DNA from: an uncultured Actinomycetota bacterium
Lineage (GTDB): Bacteria > Actinomycetota > Actinomycetes > JAHEKZ01
DNA: 64,000 bases
Direction: 5' to 3'
Assembly (NCBI GenBank): GCA_963743915.1
Contig: CAVURN010000002.1
Span: 480,001 to 544,000 of the forward strand
Made by a program: the position numbers and the translations under genes. Under the pieces are notes generated by a model, which worked only from the letters and a program-made list of their open reading frames with translations, was not told where the DNA came from and made no database searches. Positions 53,368-63,794 of this stretch are shown one piece after another (position 1 is the stretch's first letter; every line of letters starts with the position of its first letter).

Positions 53368-54366
53368 ATGGAGCATCGACGTCTTGGCCGCAGCGGCCTG
53401 AAGATCAGCGAGATCACCTACGGCAACTGGCTCACCCACGGTGCGCAGATCGACCAGGAGACCGCCACGGCCTGCGTCCACGCGGCGCTGAACGAGGGGA
53501 TCACGACCTTCGACACCGCCGACGTCTACGCGTGGGGCAAGGCGGAGTCGGCGCTCGGCGTCGCCCTCAAGGGACAGCGTCGTGAGGGCCTGGAGATCTT
53601 CACGAAGGTCTACTGGCCGACCGGGCACGGCGTGAACGACCGTGGGTTGTCGCGAAAGCACATCATGGAGTCGTGCCACGCCTCGTTGAAGCGGCTCGGC
53701 ACTGACTACATCGACCTCTACCAGGCGCACCGCTACGACTACGAGACTCCTCTCGATGAGGTGCTGTCCGCCTTCGACGACCTCATCCGTCAGGGCAAGG
53801 TGCTGTACGTCGGTGTCTCGGAGTGGAAGGCGGGACAGATCCACGAGGCCGTGCGGATGCAGCGCGAGCTCGGCTACGACCGCTTCGTGTCCAGTCAGCC
53901 CGAGTACTCGATGCTCTGGCGCGTGATCGAGGCCGAGGTCGTGCCCACGAGTCGAGAGCTCGGCCTCTCGCAGATCGTCTGGTCACCGATGGCGCAGGGT
54001 GTGTTGACCGGCAAGTACCTCCCGGGTCAGCAGCACCCCCAGGGCAGCCGGGCCACGACGTCCGACGGCGCCGAGATGATGGAGGACTACCTCACCGACG
54101 ACATCCTCACCCGGGTGCAGCAGCTCAAGCCCCTTGCCGCGGAGGCGGGCCTCAGCATGGCGCAGCTGGCCATCGCCTGGGTGCTGCAGAACGACAACGT
54201 CGCCGCTGCACTCGTCGGGGCGTCCCGTCCCGAACAGGTGAAGGACAACGCGGGCGCATCCGGCGTCCGACTCGAGCCGGAGCTGATGAAGCGCATCGAC
54301 GAGGTCCTCGGCGACGTCGTCGAGCGCGACCCGTCCAAGACCGAGAGTCCCGACCCTCGCGCCTGA
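53368..54366 (+). CDS. aldo/keto reductase, Kv-beta-like
   Basis: LGRSGLKISE, FDTADVY, TKVYW, HRYD, WSPMAQG. Confidence 0.92.
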   Translation: MEHRRLGRSGLKISEITYGNWLTHGAQIDQETATACVHAALNEGITTFDTADVYAWGKAESALGVALKGQRREGLEIFTKVYWPTGHGVNDRGLSRKHIMESCHASLKRLGTDYIDLYQAHRYDYETPLDEVLSAFDDLIRQGKVLYVGVSEWKAGQIHEAVRMQRELGYDRFVSSQPEYSMLWRVIEAEVVPTSRELGLSQIVWSPMAQGVLTGKYLPGQQHPQGSRATTSDGAEMMEDYLTDDILTRVQQLKPLAAEAGLSMAQLAIAWVLQNDNVAAALVGASRPEQVKDNAGASGVRLEPELMKRIDEVLGDVVERDPSKTESPDPRA

Positions 54367-54672: not shown

Positions 54673-54788
54673 CGTCAGCACGCTCCTTCGCCAGTCATCC
54701 GTCCACGGGGCATACGTAGTGATCGCCCGGCCGGGCTTCTTTGACGCCGACCGCTCAGGTGTGATCAGATCACGCCCACAACTCCATC

Positions 54789-54898
54789 CGCCCGTTGGCG
54801 GGGGAAGTCCGGTCGAATTCCGGCGCTGACCCGCAACCGTAGGCCGCGCACGTGCTCGCACGTGTCCCGCGGCGAGCCGGGATACCCGACAACTGGCG
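54789..54898 (+). ncRNA. cobalamin riboswitch (short form)
   Basis: GGGAAGTCCGGTCGAATTCCGGCGCTGACCCGCAACCGTA...GAGCCGGGATACC B12 box; TTGACG upstream; precedes transport and cob genes. Confidence 0.88.
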
Positions 54899-55047
54899 AG
54901 CGGCTCCCTTTTTCGTCGAGGTCTACGGGGCGGAGCCCGGGCACTCCCGCCCGTCCGCGCCCCTGCCAGCCACCCATCGGTGGCCCAGGGGCGTTGTCGT
55001 GCGGGAGACCGGGGTGCTCCGGGGATCGCTCACCCCGAGAGGTACTG

Positions 55048-56118
55048 ATGCACTTCAGCCTGCGCCGACTCACCGGCGCGCTCACGGCCGCCGCCGTCAC
55101 CGGCGGCCTGCTCCTGACCGCGCCCGTCCCGACTGCGACGGCAGCCACATCCGACGATCCTGCCCGCACCGGTCTGTTCGGCGGCCAGGACCCCACGTTC
55201 GACGGCGTCTATCGCCAGAGCCTGTCCCTCATCGCCCTGGACGCCGCGGGCGCCAGGCTTCCGGGGTCGGCGGTCAAGTGGCTGCTCCGCCAGCAGTGCC
55301 CGAACGGCAAGTTCACCTCGTTCCGGGCCGACGTGTCGGAGCCGTGCGGTGCCTACGACAGCAATGCCACCGCCCTGGCGATCATGGCACTGAAGGCGGT
55401 GGGCGAGGGTGCAGCCGCTCGCACCTCTCTGGAGTGGCTCCTGGGCAAGCAGCTGCGGAACGGGGGGTGGGAGTACAGCCCCGGGTGGAAAGCGGACGCC
55501 AGCAGCACCGGCTACGTGGTCCAGGCGATGGTCACCATGGGAGTGAAGCCGCGCTCGGTGGCCAGACGCGCGAGCGGCCCGCAGTACCTGCGCAGCGTGC
55601 AGCTTCGCTGCGAGCATGAACCAGCCAAGGAGCGAGGCGCGCTCACGTACCTCGGCACCGCCGACGCCTTCTCGACGGTGCAGGCGACCCCCGCCCTGGC
55701 CGGGGACGCACTGCCCGTCGACGCGCGGACGGTCAAGAACCGACTGCCCGCGCTCACGTGCCCCAAGGAGGGTGACCAGCCCTCGGCTGCCGCAGTCGCC
55801 GCGGGCTACCTCGGTCGAGTGATCGACGACAACGCCGGCACCGTGCCCGGCTACGGCGGAGGACCCGACTACGGCAACACCGCCAATGCCGTGCTGTCGA
55901 TGGTCGCCGCAGGATTCGGCGCCCAGCAGGTGGACGCGGCGATGGCTGCGCTCGAGGCGAACGCCGCCGACTACACGCGCGACGACGCCGACGAGGTCGT
56001 CCCGGGTGCGGCCGCGCTCGTGGTGCTGGCCGAGCTCGCCACGTCCGGCTCCCCACGTGACGTCGACGGCCTCAACCTGGTCCGCGACCTCCTGAGCTCG
56101 CGCACCCGGGCGGGCTGA
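55048..56118 (+). CDS. secreted prenyltransferase/squalene-oxidase-repeat (alpha/alpha barrel) protein
   Basis: Signal peptide; WLLRQQCPNGKF, DSNATALAIMAL, WLLGKQLRNGGW, DASSTG. Confidence 0.8.
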   Translation: MHFSLRRLTGALTAAAVTGGLLLTAPVPTATAATSDDPARTGLFGGQDPTFDGVYRQSLSLIALDAAGARLPGSAVKWLLRQQCPNGKFTSFRADVSEPCGAYDSNATALAIMALKAVGEGAAARTSLEWLLGKQLRNGGWEYSPGWKADASSTGYVVQAMVTMGVKPRSVARRASGPQYLRSVQLRCEHEPAKERGALTYLGTADAFSTVQATPALAGDALPVDARTVKNRLPALTCPKEGDQPSAAAVAAGYLGRVIDDNAGTVPGYGGGPDYGNTANAVLSMVAAGFGAQQVDAAMAALEANAADYTRDDADEVVPGAAALVVLAELATSGSPRDVDGLNLVRDLLSSRTRAG

Positions 56119-56119
56119 C

Positions 56120-57013
56120 ATGGCGACCGCGCTCCGCCGTCCCGCGCACCGGACCTTCGCACTGCTCGCGGTGCTCGTGGTCCTCGCGGGGACGGTCGGC
56201 GCGTGGGGCTCCGGCACGGCGGAAGCCTCCTCCTACCGCTACTGGTCGTACTGGATCGGCGGCGGCGACGGTTGGGGCTTCTCGACGCAAGGAGCGGCAC
56301 GACGTCCGGCGGACGGAACCGTCGACGGCTGGCGCTTCTCGATCAGCGAGGCCTCTTCGTCGACGACTCCCCCGCGCCGTGAACCGTCGTTCGCCCGGAT
56401 CTGCGGCGACACGGCACCGGTGGCCGGCAGCAAGCGGGTGGGGCTGGTGGTCGACTTCGGCACCACGTCGGACGCGCCCCCCGGCGAGACGCCGCCGGCG
56501 CTTCTGGCGCGCTGCGTGGTGGTCCCCGAGGATGCCAACGGCTACGACGTCCTCGCGACCACCGTGAGCCTCCGCACGCAGGACGGCCTGGTGTGCGGCC
56601 TCGCCGGCTACCCGACCACCGAGTGCGGCGCTCCGGTCGCCGACAGGTCGCCGACGGACGAGCCCCAGGACCCAGAAGAGACCACGGGAGCCGGTGGGGG
56701 GTCGTCCACCGGGGGGGTCGCGGGTGGCGCGGAGCCGCCGGCCACCTCCGACGGTGGGGCGGGCGAAGGTTCTGGCACCGACCGCTCCGGTGAGGACCAG
56801 CGGAGCAAGCGCAAGGACGACAAGGCCGACAGGGAGGCGGATCCCGCTCCCGATGCAGCGGTGCCGGGCGACGCGACCGCCGTCGCCGCACCCGTGGGAT
56901 CGGACGTCACCCCCTCCGGCGGGGAGGGCAGCTCCACGGCGGTGCTGGTCGGCGTCGCTCTCATCGCCGTGATCGGCGCGGCCGCGTGGGTCGTCCAACG
57001 GAGGCGCGGATGA
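56120..57013 (+). CDS. SCO2322-family surface protein with C-terminal membrane anchor
   Basis: YRYWSYW...DGWRF, VVDFGT, CGLAGYP..EC, low-complexity stalk, TM plus RRR tail. Confidence 0.8.
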   Translation: MATALRRPAHRTFALLAVLVVLAGTVGAWGSGTAEASSYRYWSYWIGGGDGWGFSTQGAARRPADGTVDGWRFSISEASSSTTPPRREPSFARICGDTAPVAGSKRVGLVVDFGTTSDAPPGETPPALLARCVVVPEDANGYDVLATTVSLRTQDGLVCGLAGYPTTECGAPVADRSPTDEPQDPEETTGAGGGSSTGGVAGGAEPPATSDGGAGEGSGTDRSGEDQRSKRKDDKADREADPAPDAAVPGDATAVAAPVGSDVTPSGGEGSSTAVLVGVALIAVIGAAAWVVQRRRG

Positions 57014-58134
57014 CCCAATTTGCGCGCGCCCTGCACCCGGTTGCCTGGTGGCTGTGGGCGCTGGGACTTGCCGCAGCGGCGTCCCGGACGCTCAACCCGC
57101 TGCTGCTCGGCGCGATCATCGCGGTGGCCGCGCTGGTCGTGGCGGCGCGGCGGAGCGAGGCTCCGTGGGGCGCGAGCTTCCGCGCGTTCCTCCTGCTCGG
57201 GGTGTTCGTCCTGGGGATCCGCCTGGTGTTCGAGGTCCTCTTCGGGGCGCCGGTGCCGGGCACCACGATCGTGACGCTGCCCGAGCTGACCCTGCCGAGC
57301 TGGATGGCGGGTGCGCAGCTCGGCGGAGCCGTCACGCTCGAGGCCCTGGTCGCCGCGGTGTACGCCGGCCTGCAGCTCGTGGCGATCCTCGCGTGCGTGG
57401 GCGCCGCCAACGCGTTGGCCAACCCGACCCGGCTGCTCAAGAGCGTGCCGGGAGCGCTGTACGAGGTGGGGGTGGCCGTCGTCGTCGCGCTCACCCTCGT
57501 GCCGAGCGCCCTCGCCCACCTGCAGCGGGTGCGCGAGGCGCGACGGCTCCGGGGCCGCAGCAGCCGCGGTCTGCGAGCGGCGGCCCGGACCGCCGTGTCG
57601 GTGCTCGAGGGCGCTCTCGAGCGCTCACTGTCGCTGGCGGCTGCGATGGACTCCCGCGGGTTCGGACGCCTCAACCCGATCCCACCCGTCCAGCGACGGG
57701 TCACCACCGCCGTCACGGTGAGCGGACTCCTCGCGATCCTGGTGGGCGGGTACGCACTGCTCGACGCGGGGACCTCCGTCGGCGCCGCGATGGCGACACT
57801 GGGCGCAGGTGTGGCCCTGACCCTCGTCGGCCTGCGCCGGGCCAACCGCCGCGCGGTTCGCACCGTCTACCGGCCGGATCCCTGGCGGTGGCCCGAGCAC
57901 GCCACCGTGGCGTCGGGACTGCTGGCCGCGGTGGTCTACGCCGCTGTCGCCTCGCTCGACCCGACCGCCATGCTGCCGGCGACGTCGCCCCTGGCCTGGC
58001 CCGAGCTGCCTCTGCTGCCGCTGCTGGCCACTCTGCTGGCGGCGGCTCCGGCGTGGGTCACGCCGCCGGTGCCGCGCGACGTCCTGTCTGCCGCACCCCG
58101 GCCGGCACCTGAGCTCTCGGCGGTGGCCGCGTGA
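57010..58134 (+). CDS. ECF transporter T component (CbiQ/EcfT family)
   Basis: LHP.AWW, ARRLRG, AMDSRGF. Confidence 0.88.
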   Translation: MTQFARALHPVAWWLWALGLAAAASRTLNPLLLGAIIAVAALVVAARRSEAPWGASFRAFLLLGVFVLGIRLVFEVLFGAPVPGTTIVTLPELTLPSWMAGAQLGGAVTLEALVAAVYAGLQLVAILACVGAANALANPTRLLKSVPGALYEVGVAVVVALTLVPSALAHLQRVREARRLRGRSSRGLRAAARTAVSVLEGALERSLSLAAAMDSRGFGRLNPIPPVQRRVTTAVTVSGLLAILVGGYALLDAGTSVGAAMATLGAGVALTLVGLRRANRRAVRTVYRPDPWRWPEHATVASGLLAAVVYAAVASLDPTAMLPATSPLAWPELPLLPLLATLLAAAPAWVTPPVPRDVLSAAPRPAPELSAVAA

Positions 58135-59724
58135 TCACCTTCGACGACGTCACCCTCCGGTACCAGGACGCCGCACGTCCGGCCCTCAGTCACGTCACCC
58201 TGCACATCCCCGAGGGAGAGCTCGCCCTCGTGGTCGGGCGAACCGGATCAGGCAAGTCCTCGCTGCTCCGTGCCGTGAACGGCCTCGCTCCGTCCTTCAC
58301 CGGCGGCCGCCTCTCCGGCCGCGTGACCGTCGCCGGGCGTGACACGCGCGACCACGCACCTCGCGAGCTGGCGGACGTGGTCGGCACGGTGCTGCAGGAT
58401 CCGCGCGACGGCTTCGTCACCGAGATCGTCGAGGACGAGATCGCCTACGGCATGGAGTCGCTGGGGCTGGCCGCCGACGTCATGCGCCGCCGCGTCGAGG
58501 AGGCCCTCGACCTGATGGGGCTGCACGACGTGCGAAGCCGGCCACTCCGCACGCTCTCCGGTGGCCAGCAGCAGCGCACCGCCATCGCCTCGGTGCTCGC
58601 CCAGCACCCTCGGGTGCTCGTGCTCGACGAGCCGACGTCCGCCCTCGACCCCAGCGCGGCCGAAGAGGTGCTCGCAGCGCTGCAGCGGCTCGTCCACGAC
58701 CTCGGACTGACCGTGCTGCTCGCCGAGCACCGGCTCGAGCGGGTCGTGCAGTTCGCCGACCGGATCGTGCACGTGCACGGGGGCGAGGCCACCGTCGGCG
58801 CCCCCGCCCAGGTCATGGTGGACGCCCCCGTGGCGCCTCCCGTGGTCGAGCTCGGACGCTGGGCGAAGTGGGAGCCACTCCCGCTGTCGATCCGCGATGC
58901 CCGGCGTCTGGCTGCGCCGCTGCGTGAGACGCTGCGCGCCCTGCCGGCAGCTCCGGCACCACGAGCACCCCTCGGCCGACGGGTCGCGGAGGTGAGCGGC
59001 CTGCACGTCGCCTTCGGCGACCATGTCGCGCTGCAGGACGTGACGCTGAGCCTGCACGCCGGCGAGATCGTGGCGGTGATGGGCCGCAACGGCGCCGGGA
59101 AGTCCACCCTGCTGCGCAGCCTCGTGGGTCTGACAGACCCCACGCGCGGTCGCGTGGAGGTGGGCGGCGACGCTCCGGGCGGGCTCTCCGCCGACGCACT
59201 CGTACGCACGCGTCGGCATGGTCCCTCAGGAGCCGGGCGACCTGCTGTGGCACGAGAGCGTCGAAGGTGAGTGCGGAGACTCACCCTCGCCCGACGCGGC
59301 GCGCGCGGTGTACGCCGAGCTCGCCCCCGGGGTCGACCCTCAGACACACCCCCGTGACCTGTCCGAGGGCCAACGGCTCGCGCTCGCTCTCGCGGTCGTG
59401 CTGGCGGCAGATGCTCCCCTGCTGCTGCTCGACGAGCCGACGCGGGGGCTCGACTACCCCACCAAGCACCGGCTCGTCGCCCTGCTGCGGCGCCGCGCCG
59501 CGTCCGGCCACACCGTCGTGGTCGCCACGCACGACGTCGAGCTGGCGGCCGACCTTGCGACCCGCACCGTCGTCGTCGCCGACGGTGAGATCGTCACCGA
59601 CGGCCCCACCCGAGACGTCGTGACCGCGTCTCCGCAGTTCGCCCCGCAGGTGGCCAAGATCCTGGCCCCCACGCCCTATCTCACGGTCACCGACGTCACG
59701 GCTGCGCTGGCGGTGTCCCCGTGA
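58131..59724 (+). CDS. ECF transporter fused double ATPase (frameshift near 59210)
   Basis: GRTGSGKS...LSGGQ...LDEPT; GRNGAGKST...LSEGQ...LDEPT. Confidence 0.9.
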
Positions 59725-60527
59725 CGAGTGCGCACCGGCTGACTCCCCGATCGGCGACGGCGATCGGGATCGTCTCGCTCATCGGCCTGCTCGCGTTCGG
59801 CTGGCCGCTGCTGGTCGAGCCCGGAACCTGGCTCGCGGAGAGCCCGGACGGGCCCTGGTTCTTCGCGCTGCTGGTGCCCCTGCTGCTCGCCGTGGTGCTG
59901 GCCGAGGTCTCCGAGGGAGGGATCGACGCGAAGACCATCGCGCTGCTGGGGGTGCTCACCGCTGTCGCCGCTGCGCTGCGACCGCTGTCCGGCGGCGTGA
60001 CCGGGTTCCAACCGATGTTCGTGGTGCTGGTGATCGGGGGTCGGGTGTTCGGGCCGGGGTTCGGCTTCCTGCTGGGGGCGACCTCGATGCTCACCTCCGC
60101 CCTGCTGACCGGTGGGGTCGGGCCGTGGCTGCCGTTCCAGATGCTGGGCGCGGCCTGGATCGGTCTCGGCGCCGGGCTGCTCCCCCGGGCCCGAGGACGC
60201 CGTGAGGTCGCCCTGCTGGCCGGGTACGGGGCCCTCACCGCACTGGCCTTCGGACTGCTGCTCAACCTCTGGTTCTGGCCGTTCGTCGTCGCCGACGGAA
60301 GCATCGCCTTCGTCGCGGGTGCGCCCATCACCGAGAACCTCGGTCGGCTGCTCGCCTTCACCGTGGCGACCTCCTGGGGCTTCGACATCCCGAGAGCCTT
60401 GGGGAACGCCGTACTGATCGCGCTGCTCGGTGCGCCGGCGTTGCGGGTGCTGCGGCGCGTCCACCGGGTCGCCGCCTTCGATGCGCTGCCCGAGTTCACG
60501 CCCGCACCCACCCGAGCGACCGCGTGA
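59721..60527 (+). CDS. ECF transporter S component, CbrT-like
   Basis: GRVFGPGFGF, GVGPWLPFQML, FDIPRA. Confidence 0.85.
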   Translation: MTSAHRLTPRSATAIGIVSLIGLLAFGWPLLVEPGTWLAESPDGPWFFALLVPLLLAVVLAEVSEGGIDAKTIALLGVLTAVAAALRPLSGGVTGFQPMFVVLVIGGRVFGPGFGFLLGATSMLTSALLTGGVGPWLPFQMLGAAWIGLGAGLLPRARGRREVALLAGYGALTALAFGLLLNLWFWPFVVADGSIAFVAGAPITENLGRLLAFTVATSWGFDIPRALGNAVLIALLGAPALRVLRRVHRVAAFDALPEFTPAPTRATA

Positions 60528-61873
60528 GAGTGCGCCTGCTCGGCACGGGGTCCGCCGACGGGTGGCCCAATCCGTTCTGCACCTGCGCGTCCTGCGCCGA
60601 CGCGCGGCTGACCGGTGCGGTGCGCGGTCAGACCGGCGCCCTGGTCGACGACTCGGTGCTCATCGACTGCGGACCGGAGATCCCCGCCGCCGCCTCGCGG
60701 GCAGGGATCGACCTGACCGGGGTGCGGACCTTGCTCTTCACCCATCAGCACCCGGACCACGTCGGTCCTGCTGTGCTGCTCTTCCGGCACTGGGCACGAC
60801 GAGTCGAACCCCTCGCCGTGTACGCACCGCAGCGGGTGATCGAAGAGCTGCGCCACTGGGTCGCACCGACGGATCCGGTCACGTTCCACGGCGTCACTGC
60901 GGCCGACACCGTCACGTTCGACGGCTACACGGTGCGCACGCTGCCGGCCGACCACGGTGACGTCACGACCGGCGAGGCGGTGCTCTTCGAGCTCACCGCC
61001 CCGGACCGGCGGCGGCTGCTGTACGCCACTGACACCGGTCCGCTCACTGACGACGCGGTGGACGCCCTCCGTGGGAGGCCGCTGGACCTGGTGCTGCTCG
61101 AGGAGACGTTCGGCGACCACGTCACGCACGGGACCCGCCACCTCGACCTGACCACCTTCCCGGACCAGCTGCGCAGGCTGCGCGAAGTGGGCGCACTGGT
61201 CGATGCGACCGACGTGGTCGCCGTCCACCTCTCGCACCACAATCCGCCGACCTCCGAGCTGGCGCGGCGCCTGGCGGCATGGGGAGCGCGGGTCGTCCCC
61301 GACGGCACTGTCATCGACGTCGGCGCAACGGCAGCCTCGCGACCGGCACTCCCCCACCGGACGTTGGTCATCGGCGGAGCGCGGTCGGGCAAGTCGCGGC
61401 ACGCCGAGCAGATGGTCACCGCCTCGTCCCGAGTCACCTACGTGGCGACCGGACCGACCGATGACGGCGACCCGACGTGGTCGGCGCGGGTCGAGTCACA
61501 CCGACGGCGACGGCCCGGTCACTGGACGACGCGCGAGACGACGGACGTGGCCGGCGTCCTGGCGTCGGCGTCTCCGGGCGAGGTGGTGCTCGTCGACTGC
61601 TTGACCCTGTGGCTCACACGGGTCATGGACGACGCCGGCGCGTGGGACGGTGACCTCGCTCTGGTCGACAAGCAGGTCGACCAGCTGCTCGACGCCTGGC
61701 GCGCCACGCGCGCCACTGTCGTCGCCGTCAGCAACGAGGTGGGACAGGGCGTCGTGCCCTCCACGGCGTCCGGCAGACTCTTCCGCGACGCGCAGGGACG
61801 ACTCAACGCGCGCCTGGCCCGCGAGGCCGACGAGGTCGTCATGATGGTGGCCGGGCGTCCGGTCCGCCTGTGA
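60524..61873 (+). CDS. cobU: PhnP-like MBL hydrolase fused to CobU (adenosylcobinamide kinase/guanylyltransferase)
   Basis: N-terminal LGTGS...CTCASC, THQHPDH, YATDT, HLSH; C-terminal [24 protein letters not shown]. Confidence 0.9.
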
Positions 61874-61886
61874 GCGGAGGTCACTG

Positions 61887-63018
61887 GTGGACATCGACCT
61901 GAAGCAGTTCCGCGACGCGATCGTCCGACCCGACGACGACGCGCGACGCGAGGCCGAAGCGCGCCAACGCCTGCTGACCAAGCCGGCCGGGGCCCTGGGG
62001 CGTCTCGAGAAGCTGTCGACGTGGGTGGCCTCCGTGCAAGGACAGTGTCCGCCGCACGCCCTCGAGCGCGCGCGAGTGGTGGTCTTCGCCGGGGACCACG
62101 GGGTGGCGGCGAGCGGCGTCTCGGCCTACCCGCCGGAGGTCACCGCGCAGATGGTGCAGAACTTCGTCGACGGCGGCGCCGCCGTCAACGTCCTCGCGCG
62201 GACCCTGGGCGCCACGGTGCGGGTGGTCGACATGGCGGTTGCGGTGTCGCTCCCCGGGCTGCCCGACGACGTGGTGCGTCACAAAGTGCGTCAAGGTTCC
62301 GGAAACATCGCCGTCGAGGACGCCCTCACCCGTGACGAGGTCGAGGCAGCCTTCGCTGCCGGTGTCGCGATCGCCGATGAGGAGGTCGACGCCGGCGCCG
62401 ACCTCCTCATCCCCGGCGACATGGGGATCGGGAACACGACACCGGCGGCAGCACTGATCGGGCTGCTCGGATCCCGGGACGCCGCTGCCGTCACGGGTCG
62501 CGGGAACGGGCATCGACGACGAGGCGTGGATGCGCAAGGCCGCGGCGGTGCGCGACGCGATGCGACGCGGACGCAGCGTCAAGGCCGACCAGCTCGCGCT
62601 GCTCGCCACGGTCGGTGGGGCCGACTTCGCGGCGATGACCGGATTTCTGCTGCAGGCAGCCGTCCGCAGAACTCCGGTGATCCTCGACGGCGTGGTCTCA
62701 GGCGCCTGCGCCATGGTGGCGCACCGCGTCGCGTACCGGTGCGCGAAGTGGTGGCAGGCGGGTCATCTGTCGGTCGAGCCGGCGCACGAGTACGTGCTCG
62801 CGCGGCTGCAGCTCGAGCCCCTGCTCGACTACCAGCTGCGGCTCGGCGAGGGGACGGGTGCGCTGCTGGCGTTGCCACTCGTCCGCGCGGCTCAAGCCAC
62901 ACTCGCGGAGATGGCCACCTTCGAGGACGCCGGGGTCGCCTCGCTCCCCCCGATCGACGAGGCACCTACCCCCGTGGACGACGAGCAGGACGACGCCGAC
63001 CACTTCGGCCGGAGGTAG
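61887..63018 (+). CDS. cobT: nicotinate-nucleotide--DMB phosphoribosyltransferase (frameshift near 62505)
   Basis: [37 protein letters not shown]. Confidence 0.93.
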
Positions 63019-63020
63019 TG

Positions 63021-63794
63021 GTGCTCGACGGGCTCCGTCTGTCGTTCGGCACCTTGAGCCTGCTGCCGGTCGGCCACCCCACGTCCGTCGACCGCCGCAC
63101 CTGGGGCCGGGCCGTGCTCGTCGCTCCCTGCGTCGGCGTGGTCGTCGGTGCCCTCGCGTGGGCAGCAGCCGTCGGCGTGACCACCCTCGGCGGGTCATCG
63201 TTGCTCGCCGCCGTCGCAGTGGTCGGTGTCCTGGCTGTCCTGACGCGCGGGCTGCACCTCGACGGCTTGGCGGACGTGGCAGACGGTCTCGGCAGCCGCA
63301 GGGCACCCGCCGACGCGCGTGCGGTCATGCGTCAGTCGGACGTCGGACCGTTCGGAGTCGTGGCACTGACACTGGCGCTGCTGACACAGGTCGCGGCGCT
63401 GGCGCCGCTGCTGTCGGGAGACGCAGGGTCTGCGGCGGTCGCGGTGATCGGCGCCTGCGTGGTGAGTCGCGCCGCCGTCACATGGGCCTGCAGGACGGGA
63501 GTGGCGCCGGCCGACACTTCCGGCCTGGGCAGTGCCGTGGCCGGGAGCGTCCGCACCGCCGCGGCCGCGGCGACTGTCCTCGCAAGCGTCGGCGTCGTGG
63601 TCGCGTCCGCAGCCCTGCTCGGCGGGGCGGCCGACGGCTGGCGCTCCGCCGTCGCCGCGACGATCGCGCTGATCGTGGCCGAGCTCTGGCGTCAGCACTG
63701 CAGCCGTCGTCTCGGTGGACTCACCGGCGACGTCCTCGGCGCGACCGAACAGGTGACGTGGACCAGCTTTGTCGTCGCCCTCTCACTCGCCTGA
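63021..63794 (+). CDS. cobS: adenosylcobinamide-GDP ribazoletransferase
   Basis: [29 protein letters not shown]. Confidence 0.93.

Follow-up and report, generated by a model that had tools for sequence, protein, structure and literature searches.

A cobalamin riboswitch-controlled pair of exported proteins that probably captures corrinoids for a CbrT-type ECF importer in Actinomycetota

Introduction

Transcobalamin's C-terminal domain was defined as a β-grasp domain of the SLBB type by Burroughs, Balaji, Iyer and Aravind (2007; PMC1796856). By that account, as far as its text was available to us, the bacterial SLBB homologues are secreted or anchored proteins that are often fused to an α/α toroid and often encoded with CbiO/CbiQ, and they were proposed to scavenge vitamin B12. 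A separately encoded version comes from Lactobacillus sakei, where lsa1839 and lsa1840 are the β-like and α-like halves of a transcobalamin within an operon for an energy-coupling factor (ECF) transporter; the available part of that preprint argues for heme scavenging (10.1101/864751). As both works propose it, the idea that an ECF transporter could have a split, transcobalamin-like receptor is not new. Here we analyze a stretch of 64,000 nucleotides from an uncultured Actinomycetota bacterium (contig CAVURN010000002.1, positions 480,001 to 544,000 of the forward strand; hereafter the window), in which a cobalamin riboswitch is followed by genes for two exported proteins, a SCO2321-like toroid (P0001) and a protein of the SCO2322 family (P0002), and then by the genes of an ECF transporter. 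We propose that this pair, under control of the B12 riboswitch, probably captures B12-like molecules outside the cell for a B12 importer.

ECF transporters are taught as independent of binding proteins. The first prediction of the ECF S component CbrT is reportedly that of Rodionov et al in 2009, a study known to us through its citation in the later work on CbrT. ECF-CbrT of Lactobacillus delbrueckii (Protein Data Bank (PDB) entry 6FNP) transports cobalamin and cobinamide, according to the available text of Santos et al (2018; PMC5997447). In genomes of the freshwater acI lineage, ECF modules that follow cobalamin riboswitches were described as putative B12 transporters by Kang et al (2017; PMC5301498), and the same source, in the part available, gives this lineage as lacking a B12 pathway. 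The part of Zhang et al (2009; PMC2667541) available to us holds nothing on the system described here.

The original prediction, made from the sequence of the window alone, took the two exported proteins for the separately encoded α and β halves of a transcobalamin-like clamp and knew of no functional description of the family. For SCO2321/SCO2322 this stands: we found no description of their function in the literature searched, and nothing there that brings the squalene oxidase repeat together with cobalamin; the papers that mention both DUF4430 and cobalamin do not, to judge by title, deal with uptake by bacteria. The general concept, however, was already contained in Burroughs et al (2007) and in the L. 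sakei preprint, so far as their available texts go. What we add is the assignment of the SCO2321/SCO2322 pair to a role in corrinoid capture, evidence for reading the SCO2322 domain as a permuted β domain to which hidden Markov models are blind, and the breadth of the system in Actinomycetota.

Results

A cobalamin riboswitch, the exported pair and a dedicated transporter share one operon

The aptamer at the head of the operon scores above the gathering threshold of its Rfam family, lies on the same strand as the genes and ends 140 nucleotides before the first start codon (Table 1). It is the operon's own and the only RF00174 match in the whole 2.9-Mb genome. Behind it follow the toroid P0001, the SCO2322-family protein P0002, EcfT, a fused EcfA-EcfA′ double ATPase (EcfAA′), an S component, a metallo-β-lactamase (MBL) domain fused to CobU, CobT and CobS, all encoded on the plus strand by overlapping or abutting genes. 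The expectation of a cobalamin riboswitch followed by two genes for exported proteins was therefore borne out at the coordinates of Table 1, as was the position of the pair directly ahead of ecfT-ecfAA′-S, since genes with CbiQ, double ABC_tran and PF12822 domains were found in just that order.

The transporter is of the dedicated, Group I kind, with EcfT, two ATPase domains and the S component encoded by consecutive overlapping genes. When a profile of 17 S-component orthologues was compared with the PDB, the sole significant match was 6fnp_A, ECF-CbrT (E 3.9e-14, positions 8–180 of 182), and the next match stood at E 0.52; the single sequence of the window retrieved only noise, so that CbrT came into reach only with the 17-sequence profile. 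This match identifies the S component as a CbrT homologue, for which transport of cobalamin or cobinamide would be expected. The matched part starts at about residue 69, and the N-terminal extension that precedes it (59721–59920) adds one hydrophobic segment.

The genome, which is 90% complete, carries B12-dependent enzymes, with six matches to B12-binding domains, and no match in it to CbiC or CobD/CbiB, the markers of the corrin pathway that we looked for. Because these markers are unmatched, B12-binding domains are present and there is a single RF00174 locus, the organism looks like a corrinoid salvager, and the operon looks like its main regulated route for corrinoid uptake and for the nucleotide loop. 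That the operon is a B12-repressed corrinoid salvage operon seems to us reasonably likely. A scan of the leader for a terminator and a promoter found neither, and folding of the leader (z −2.0) gave no clear expression platform.

The arrangement recurs throughout Actinomycetota

A scan of one genome per species gave at least 542 relatives among 599 matching stretches, of which 80 loci were kept. They come from many uncultured Actinomycetota, from Nanopelagicales, Terrabacter, Segeticoccus and Streptomyces, and from records labelled Actinomyces and Bifidobacterium. Neighbours were counted with profiles of both exported proteins together with the window's own transporter proteins. The toroid gene lay immediately upstream of the SCO2322 gene in 61 of the 66 loci with room upstream, and T, AA′ and S followed downstream in 51 of the 55 loci with room on that side; of 53 related loci, 32 continued from the S component to a gene for MBL-CobU. 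An arrangement that recurs in this way in 80 loci of other Actinomycetota genomes is far beyond chance. Four loci had no ECF genes downstream, and in the two of these that we examined the pair adjoins CobT (L053) or CobU-CobT (L087).

Riboswitches were sought in 20 loci chosen from the 80, with three exceptions included. A cobalamin-class riboswitch was found directly upstream in 17 of them, the misses being L041, L053 and L059. The upstream riboswitches of the scanned loci (within L031–L110) belong to three Rfam families, RF00174, RF01482 (AdoCbl) and RF01689 (AdoCbl-II); the aptamer class has been swapped above an unchanged set of regulated genes.

Related operons place a canonical DUF4430 protein where P0002 stands

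The domain DUF4430, the Pfam counterpart of the SLBB surface proteins, is present in 48 of 301 sampled Actinomycetota genomes and had no match anywhere in the window's own genome. Two operons that contain it bridge to the system of the window. The first (L115) has a strong cobalamin riboswitch (106 bits), a β-propeller protein, a DUF4430 protein, CbiQ, about 1.6 kb that was not scanned, an S component and a toroid with a C-terminal anchor. Over 188 residues this toroid shares 31% identity with P0001 (E 2e-12), and the S component shares 32% with that of the window (E 2e-20). The second operon (L113) is headed by an AdoCbl-II riboswitch. After it come a surface protein of 1,537 residues that combines a propeller with two DUF4430 domains, a small DUF4430 protein that is tethered, a 308-residue protein that Pfam does not match, a double ATPase and an S component sharing 31% identity with that of the window. 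Judged by these two operons, the same transporter family pairs with either a canonical DUF4430 protein or a SCO2322 protein in the same position, and both versions are sometimes accompanied by a homologous toroid. By analogy, this positional equivalence may be taken as the strongest indirect support for SCO2322 as a β half.

The DUF4430 operons have two further features of their own. Large β-propeller surface proteins open them in L115 (2574–5255), L113 (3836–8449) and L116 (7924–10086, minus strand), with propeller domains of the PQQ_2 or Beta-prop_ACSF4 type, once together with DUF5719; propeller-type B12 binders are known from Bacteroides. There is also a second actinobacterial class of DUF4430 proteins (L005–L010, L015, L016, L018, L020–L025, L027 and L028), in which the domain is N-terminal and stands right after a lipoprotein-like or signal segment (CxxMPWN). 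The conserved region of about 220 residues at their C-terminus was scanned in a single member (L115, 5328–6299), where Pfam gave no match.

The tethered protein carries a domain that resembles a permuted transcobalamin β domain

P0002 matches the NCBIfam model NF040672 (SCO2322_fam) with 165.6 bits against a cut-off of 85, over model positions 1–143 of 144. The Pfam family PF28005 is precomputed on all 120 homologues among the matches listed, and a search of the ESM Atlas with the domain returned this family only (scores 0.86–0.88). A profile search put the family at 2,558 representative proteins at E ≤ 0.001, or 448 at E ≤ 1e-30. P0002 is membrane-tethered on a flexible stalk, as had been predicted from the sequence: the globular domain is followed by some 90 residues rich in G, A, D, P, S and T, which are unconserved in the homologue alignment, and then by a hydrophobic helix at the C-terminus whose tail reads RRRG. 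Of 51 homologues, 49 likewise close with such a helix and a basic tail. The anchor of P0002 has only weak matches to Gram_pos_anchor (E 0.092) and to a GVDTG sorting domain (E 0.026), and an LPXTG motif was not seen in the protein.

The folded domain of about 140 residues was modeled from the window's sequence with 51 homologues chosen from the 120 listed, and residues 31–180 gave a mean predicted local distance difference test score of 91.6. In its C-terminal part the order of elements is strand, strand, helix and hairpin. The transcobalamin-like clade of SLBB domains was delimited by a β-grasp core with a β-hairpin inserted after the helix (Burroughs et al, 2007). Four chains of the transcobalamin β type match the model at residues ~71–144 with low scores; we count them as one event because the chains are related to each other. 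The B12-binding β domain is nevertheless the only ligand-relevant fold family in the list of structural matches.

For a comparison at the level of profiles, we aligned 27 DUF4430 domains from other Actinomycetota genomes (30 loci less one near-duplicate and two partial matches). In native order, hhalign placed residues 70–144 of the SCO2322 domain on DUF4430 positions 8–80 (65 columns, P 2.1e-4, probability 46%); the P value was 7.6e-4 in a first run with the whole alignment and 8.9e-5 with the C-terminal half of SCO2322 alone. None of 150 column shuffles reached the real score of this C-terminal part (28.2 versus a mean of 10.6, standard deviation 2.6). Residues 8–45 of the domain matched DUF4430 positions 76–111, which is the segment left over from the first alignment (P 0.013–0.02), and one of 150 shuffles reached the real score there. 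When the DUF4430 profile was permuted so that its C-terminal third came first, the two matches fell into a single stretch of 99 aligned columns (P 3.6e-5, probability 71%), spanning SCO2322 residues 10–139 and DUF4430 positions 4–111. The motifs aligned in the match of residues 8–45 to positions 76–111 are YRYWSYW...GA...DGxVxGWRF of SCO2322 and WFYYVNG...GA...GDxVxWxY of DUF4430.

We thus hold, with moderate confidence, that the SCO2322 domain may be a circularly permuted relative of the transcobalamin β domain (SLBB/DUF4430 β-grasp). The likeness is weak but convergent. The domain does not appear to be an ordinary DUF4430, and a circular permutation is the best fit to the alignments. The claim that P0002 is a β half was upheld to this extent; as an ordinary DUF4430 protein it was not.

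Proteins in which a SCO2322 domain is fused to another, or which are longer, were sought among sequences of 521–2000 residues; none scored, which is weak evidence. A candidate Rosetta-stone fusion, P0230 (730 residues), was rejected. It looks like a read-through of two adjacent genes, with a second half that retains its own signal peptide after a junction without a recognizable domain. A prediction of the complex between the mature toroid and the SCO2322 domain, both in the apo state and with alignments, scored 0.00, which is no verdict and carries no weight. The contact between the two domains of transcobalamin is made largely by way of the ligand, which was absent from the prediction.

The toroid is a secreted SCO2321 homologue closer to terpene cyclases than to transcobalamin

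P0001 matches the NCBIfam equivalog NF053823 (SCO2321 family membrane protein) with 228.9 bits (E 9.7e-68), below the cut-off of 300 bits. The match covers model positions 3–351 of 405, and nothing follows the final helix of the toroid in the protein. P0001 is therefore a clear SCO2321 homologue in an anchorless form that falls outside the equivalog cut-off. About 10 of 52 toroid homologues, the longer ones (417–465 residues), possess a C-terminal hydrophobic helix with a basic tail, whereas the window's toroid and its near relatives stop after the last helix of the toroid. The description as a secreted α/α repeat protein without the DxDD motif proved accurate: the N-terminus is signal-like, the fold is a toroid and DxDD, the mark of class II terpene cyclases, is not present in P0001. 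Unlike the class II terpene cyclases of the squalene-hopene cyclase type, which are cytoplasmic or lie at the membrane face, P0001 carries an N-terminal export signal; the likeness to them lies in fold and repeats.

The best matches in both sequence and structure are the repeats of terpene cyclases (squalene-hopene cyclase) and prenyltransferases, not glycosidases. The Pfam model of the α domain of eukaryotic cobalamin-binding proteins, PF01122, did not match P0001 at E ≤ 0.1 and touched 6 of 53 members of the toroid family, with a best score of 24.8 bits (E 1.3e-5) that stays under the 25-bit cut-off. By these searches the toroid seems nearer to squalene-hopene cyclase repeats than to transcobalamin. 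As transcobalamin is missing from the top matches and PF01122 reaches only these six proteins, P0001 is a toroid of the right general kind and not specifically a transcobalamin-like one; here the idea of a transcobalamin-like α half was not upheld.

Four cysteines are nearly or fully invariant among P0001 homologues and four are invariant among SCO2322 homologues, a pattern that would fit disulfide-bonded exported proteins. Two adjacent arginines stand in the signal segment of P0001 (55048–55146; SLRRLTG), and at this position the consensus of the family has RR too. Export through the twin-arginine translocation (Tat) pathway, as a folded toroid, may be possible.

Downstream genes, reading frames and neighbours

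The MBL domain of MBL-CobU is PhnP-like by NCBIfam (56 bits), and it could supply a phosphatase or phosphodiesterase step in nucleotide-loop assembly or cobamide remodelling. Two genes of the operon have apparent frame breaks, ecfAA′ near 59210 and cobT near 62505. We aligned contigs from four public metagenome runs (four studies; sediment and root) on 58900–62700. In contigs of all four runs one base is absent at 59210 or 59211 and one at 62505; such contigs make up most or all of the depth at both sites, and dropping one base at each restores both frames. The two breaks are one-base insertion errors of this assembly, and since the same difference restores the frames in 4/4 runs the operon is read as intact. 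Similar split hits occur in several loci of related metagenome-assembled genomes (MAGs; L034, L035 and L038–L040).

An aldo/keto reductase gene (53368–54366) lies just 5′ of the riboswitch, and another is found upstream of the pair in L053 (3839–4837). Its place next to the pair is probably a matter of conserved neighbourhood only.

Table 1. Positions of the operon's features in the window
Feature	Position	Strand	Basis
Cobalamin riboswitch aptamer, head of operon	54779..54907	+	Rfam RF00174, 39.2 bits (gathering score 31.5), E 4.5e-7, full model 1–189
SCO2321-like secreted α/α-toroid protein P0001, 356 aa	55048..56118	+	Signal peptide ~residues 1–33; no C-terminal anchor
SCO2322-family protein P0002, 297 aa	56120..57013	+	Signal peptide, globular domain, disordered stalk, C-terminal membrane anchor
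N-terminal strands of SCO2322 domain, residues 38–75	56231..56344	+	Match to C-terminal third of DUF4430
C-terminal part of SCO2322 domain, residues 100–174 (strand, strand, helix, hairpin)	56417..56641	+	Match to N-terminal two thirds of DUF4430 and to transcobalamin β domain
Low-complexity stalk, ~residues 175–266	56642..56917	+	92 residues: G16 A14 D13 P10 S9 T8 E7
C-terminal transmembrane anchor and RRRG tail	56930..56995	+	Best 17-residue Kyte-Doolittle window 2.64
EcfT (CbiQ family) transmembrane coupling subunit	56986..58134	+	Pfam PF02361 CbiQ, 26.3 bits
Fused EcfA-EcfA′ double ATPase	58131..59724	+	ABC_tran in two stretches; ECF_ATPase_1, 235 bits
CbrT-like S component, 268 aa	59721..60527	+	Pfam PF12822, 40 bits
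MBL-fold domain fused to CobU (cobinamide kinase/guanylyltransferase)	60524..61873	+	CobU, 186.6 bits (residues 280–449); Lactamase_B_2, 65.9 bits (45–209)
CobT (nicotinate-nucleotide:dimethylbenzimidazole phosphoribosyltransferase)	61887..63018	+	DBI_PRT positions 2–190 and 197–329, in two frames
CobS (cobalamin-5′-phosphate synthase)	63003..63794, start approximate	+	Pfam CobS, 149.6 bits

Discussion

We consider a role in corrinoid capture, for the pair or for the SCO2322 protein alone, to be appreciably better supported than its opposite. The steps would be as follows. When adenosylcobalamin is scarce, the riboswitch would permit expression of the operon and the two proteins would be exported, the SCO2321-like toroid without an anchor and the SCO2322 protein on its C-terminal one, with its globular domain held some 90 disordered residues above the membrane. 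The tethered permuted β-grasp, alone or by closing against the toroid, would bind cobalamin or cobinamide in the zone of the cell wall. The ligand would then be handed to the membrane-embedded CbrT-like S component, import would be powered by EcfT-EcfAA′, and MBL-CobU, CobT and CobS would then work in the cytoplasm to add the lower nucleotide loop or build it anew. A more specific version is tentative: the β-grasp might serve as a "fishing rod" on its stalk of about 90 residues that closes with the secreted toroid around the corrinoid and docks it on the S component. The anchorless toroid could even act as a released and recapturable "corrinophore".

A number of results weigh against this proposal. 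The Pfam model of DUF4430 (PF14478) matches none of 52 SCO2322 homologues at E ≤ 1, a profile of SCO2322 gave only noise against PDB sequences (E ≥ 0.49), and the N-terminal half of the argument for a permutation rests on P ~0.01. The Foldseek comparison with transcobalamin and intrinsic factor by which the clamp was to be judged did not come out in its favour: the SCO2322 model had no match in the PDB at E ≤ 0.001 (best E 1.7), and for the toroid transcobalamin is in neither the best 60 of 73 sequence matches nor the top 50 structural ones, with a match of lower rank still possible. P0001 has no C-terminal anchor that would keep it at the cell. In the literature searched we found no binding experiment for either family. 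Finally, the toroid can be missing. In four Terrabacter loci (L088, L089, L091 and L107) and one MAG (L077) the riboswitch is followed directly by SCO2322-EcfT-AA′-S with no toroid between, and a whole-genome search found a SCO2321-like toroid in none of these five genomes; as a positive control, the same search matched the toroid of the window's own genome at E 1.7e-148. Because five genomes keep SCO2322 and the ECF genes without it, the toroid is not required for SCO2322 to be kept, and on account of these cases a strict two-protein clamp appears to us doubtful, the less probable form of the capture role.

The same five genomes favour the first alternative, that the two proteins bind independently. 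SCO2322 alone would then be the corrinoid receptor for the S component, and the toroid would have another ligand or a separate task, such as scavenging corrinoids as a free secreted protein or serving as a wall store. The difference in anchoring between P0001 and P0002 agrees with this, as does the pairing of DUF4430 proteins with β-propeller proteins instead of toroids in L113, L116 and L115. Against it, the two genes are adjacent in 61 of 66 loci and often overlap by a few bases, about 10 of 52 toroid homologues do have an anchor of their own, and in animal transcobalamin a toroid and a β domain sandwich one B12 molecule (Burroughs et al, 2007, in the text available). Independent binding is in our view rather unlikely.

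It is improbable that neither protein binds a ligand, with the toroid acting on the envelope and SCO2322 being a structural or assembly factor that helps the 1.3-kDa vitamin or the transporter through the wall. An envelope role is conceivable because six-hairpin toroids include glycoside hydrolases and glycan binders; yet the best matches of this toroid are cyclase and prenyltransferase repeats, the sole relevant ligand-binding fold family recovered for SCO2322 is the B12-binding β domain, and in orthologous operons this position is taken by a genuine DUF4430 protein. Least probable is another tetrapyrrole such as heme as the cargo: the lsa1836–1840 ECF operon of L. sakei, with its α-like and β-like secreted proteins, is reported in the available part of the preprint to contribute to heme uptake (10.1101/864751), but a cobalamin riboswitch controls this operon and 17 of 20 scanned relatives, cobU-cobT-cobS belong to the same transcription unit and the S component matches CbrT.

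If corrinoid capture by the pair is correct, the rule that ECF transporters work without binding proteins would have a clear exception, and a widespread one, in this conserved, riboswitch-controlled exported pair encoded ahead of a CbrT-type importer. The pair would amount to an extracytoplasmic substrate-binding system for ECF transporters in hundreds of actinobacterial species, among them the abundant B12-auxotrophic Nanopelagicales of freshwater, and would help to explain how B12-auxotrophic Actinomycetota obtain a scarce vitamin. The link would also annotate the whole large SCO2322 family. If the permutation is real, it would extend the history of the transcobalamin β domain and show why sequence models missed the connection. 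The proposed role is directly open to simple experiments on binding and uptake.

Compared with animal transcobalamin, intrinsic factor and haptocorrin, the system would share extracellular capture by an α/α toroid and a small β-grasp with a hairpin after the helix. The animal proteins are one chain, whereas here two genes are used; the β-like domain is apparently circularly permuted and about 40 residues longer than the transcobalamin β domain, and squalene-hopene cyclase is a closer relation of the toroid than PF01122 of the animal group. The β-like protein is tethered to the membrane for delivery to an ECF transporter, in place of the endocytic receptor that serves animal transcobalamin. The bacterial DUF4430 (SLBB) surface proteins are similar in that an exported SLBB domain and an α/α toroid, fused or separate, go with ECF T, A and S genes. 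In the window the SCO2322 domain takes the place of DUF4430 and escapes its model, and its anchor is C-terminal after the stalk, whereas the actinobacterial DUF4430 proteins that we saw have an N-terminal helix, then the stalk and then the domain. With ECF-CbrT of L. delbrueckii the system shares a homologous S component and the same expected class of substrate, cobalamin or cobinamide. CbrT draws on a common ECF module (group II), whereas the T, AA′ and S proteins of the window are dedicated and co-transcribed, and the S component of 268 residues has some 65 more at its N-terminus than the 182-residue CbrT of 6FNP. Two extracytoplasmic proteins precede the transporter genes here, and none is discussed for ECF-CbrT in the available text of PMC5997447. 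BtuF, the periplasmic protein of BtuCD, is a functional analogue in that it captures corrinoids outside the cytoplasm with high affinity, by an unrelated fold and for a different class of transporter. The surface B12 binder BtuG of Bacteroides is likewise a functional analogue, with an unrelated fold and a transporter of another class.

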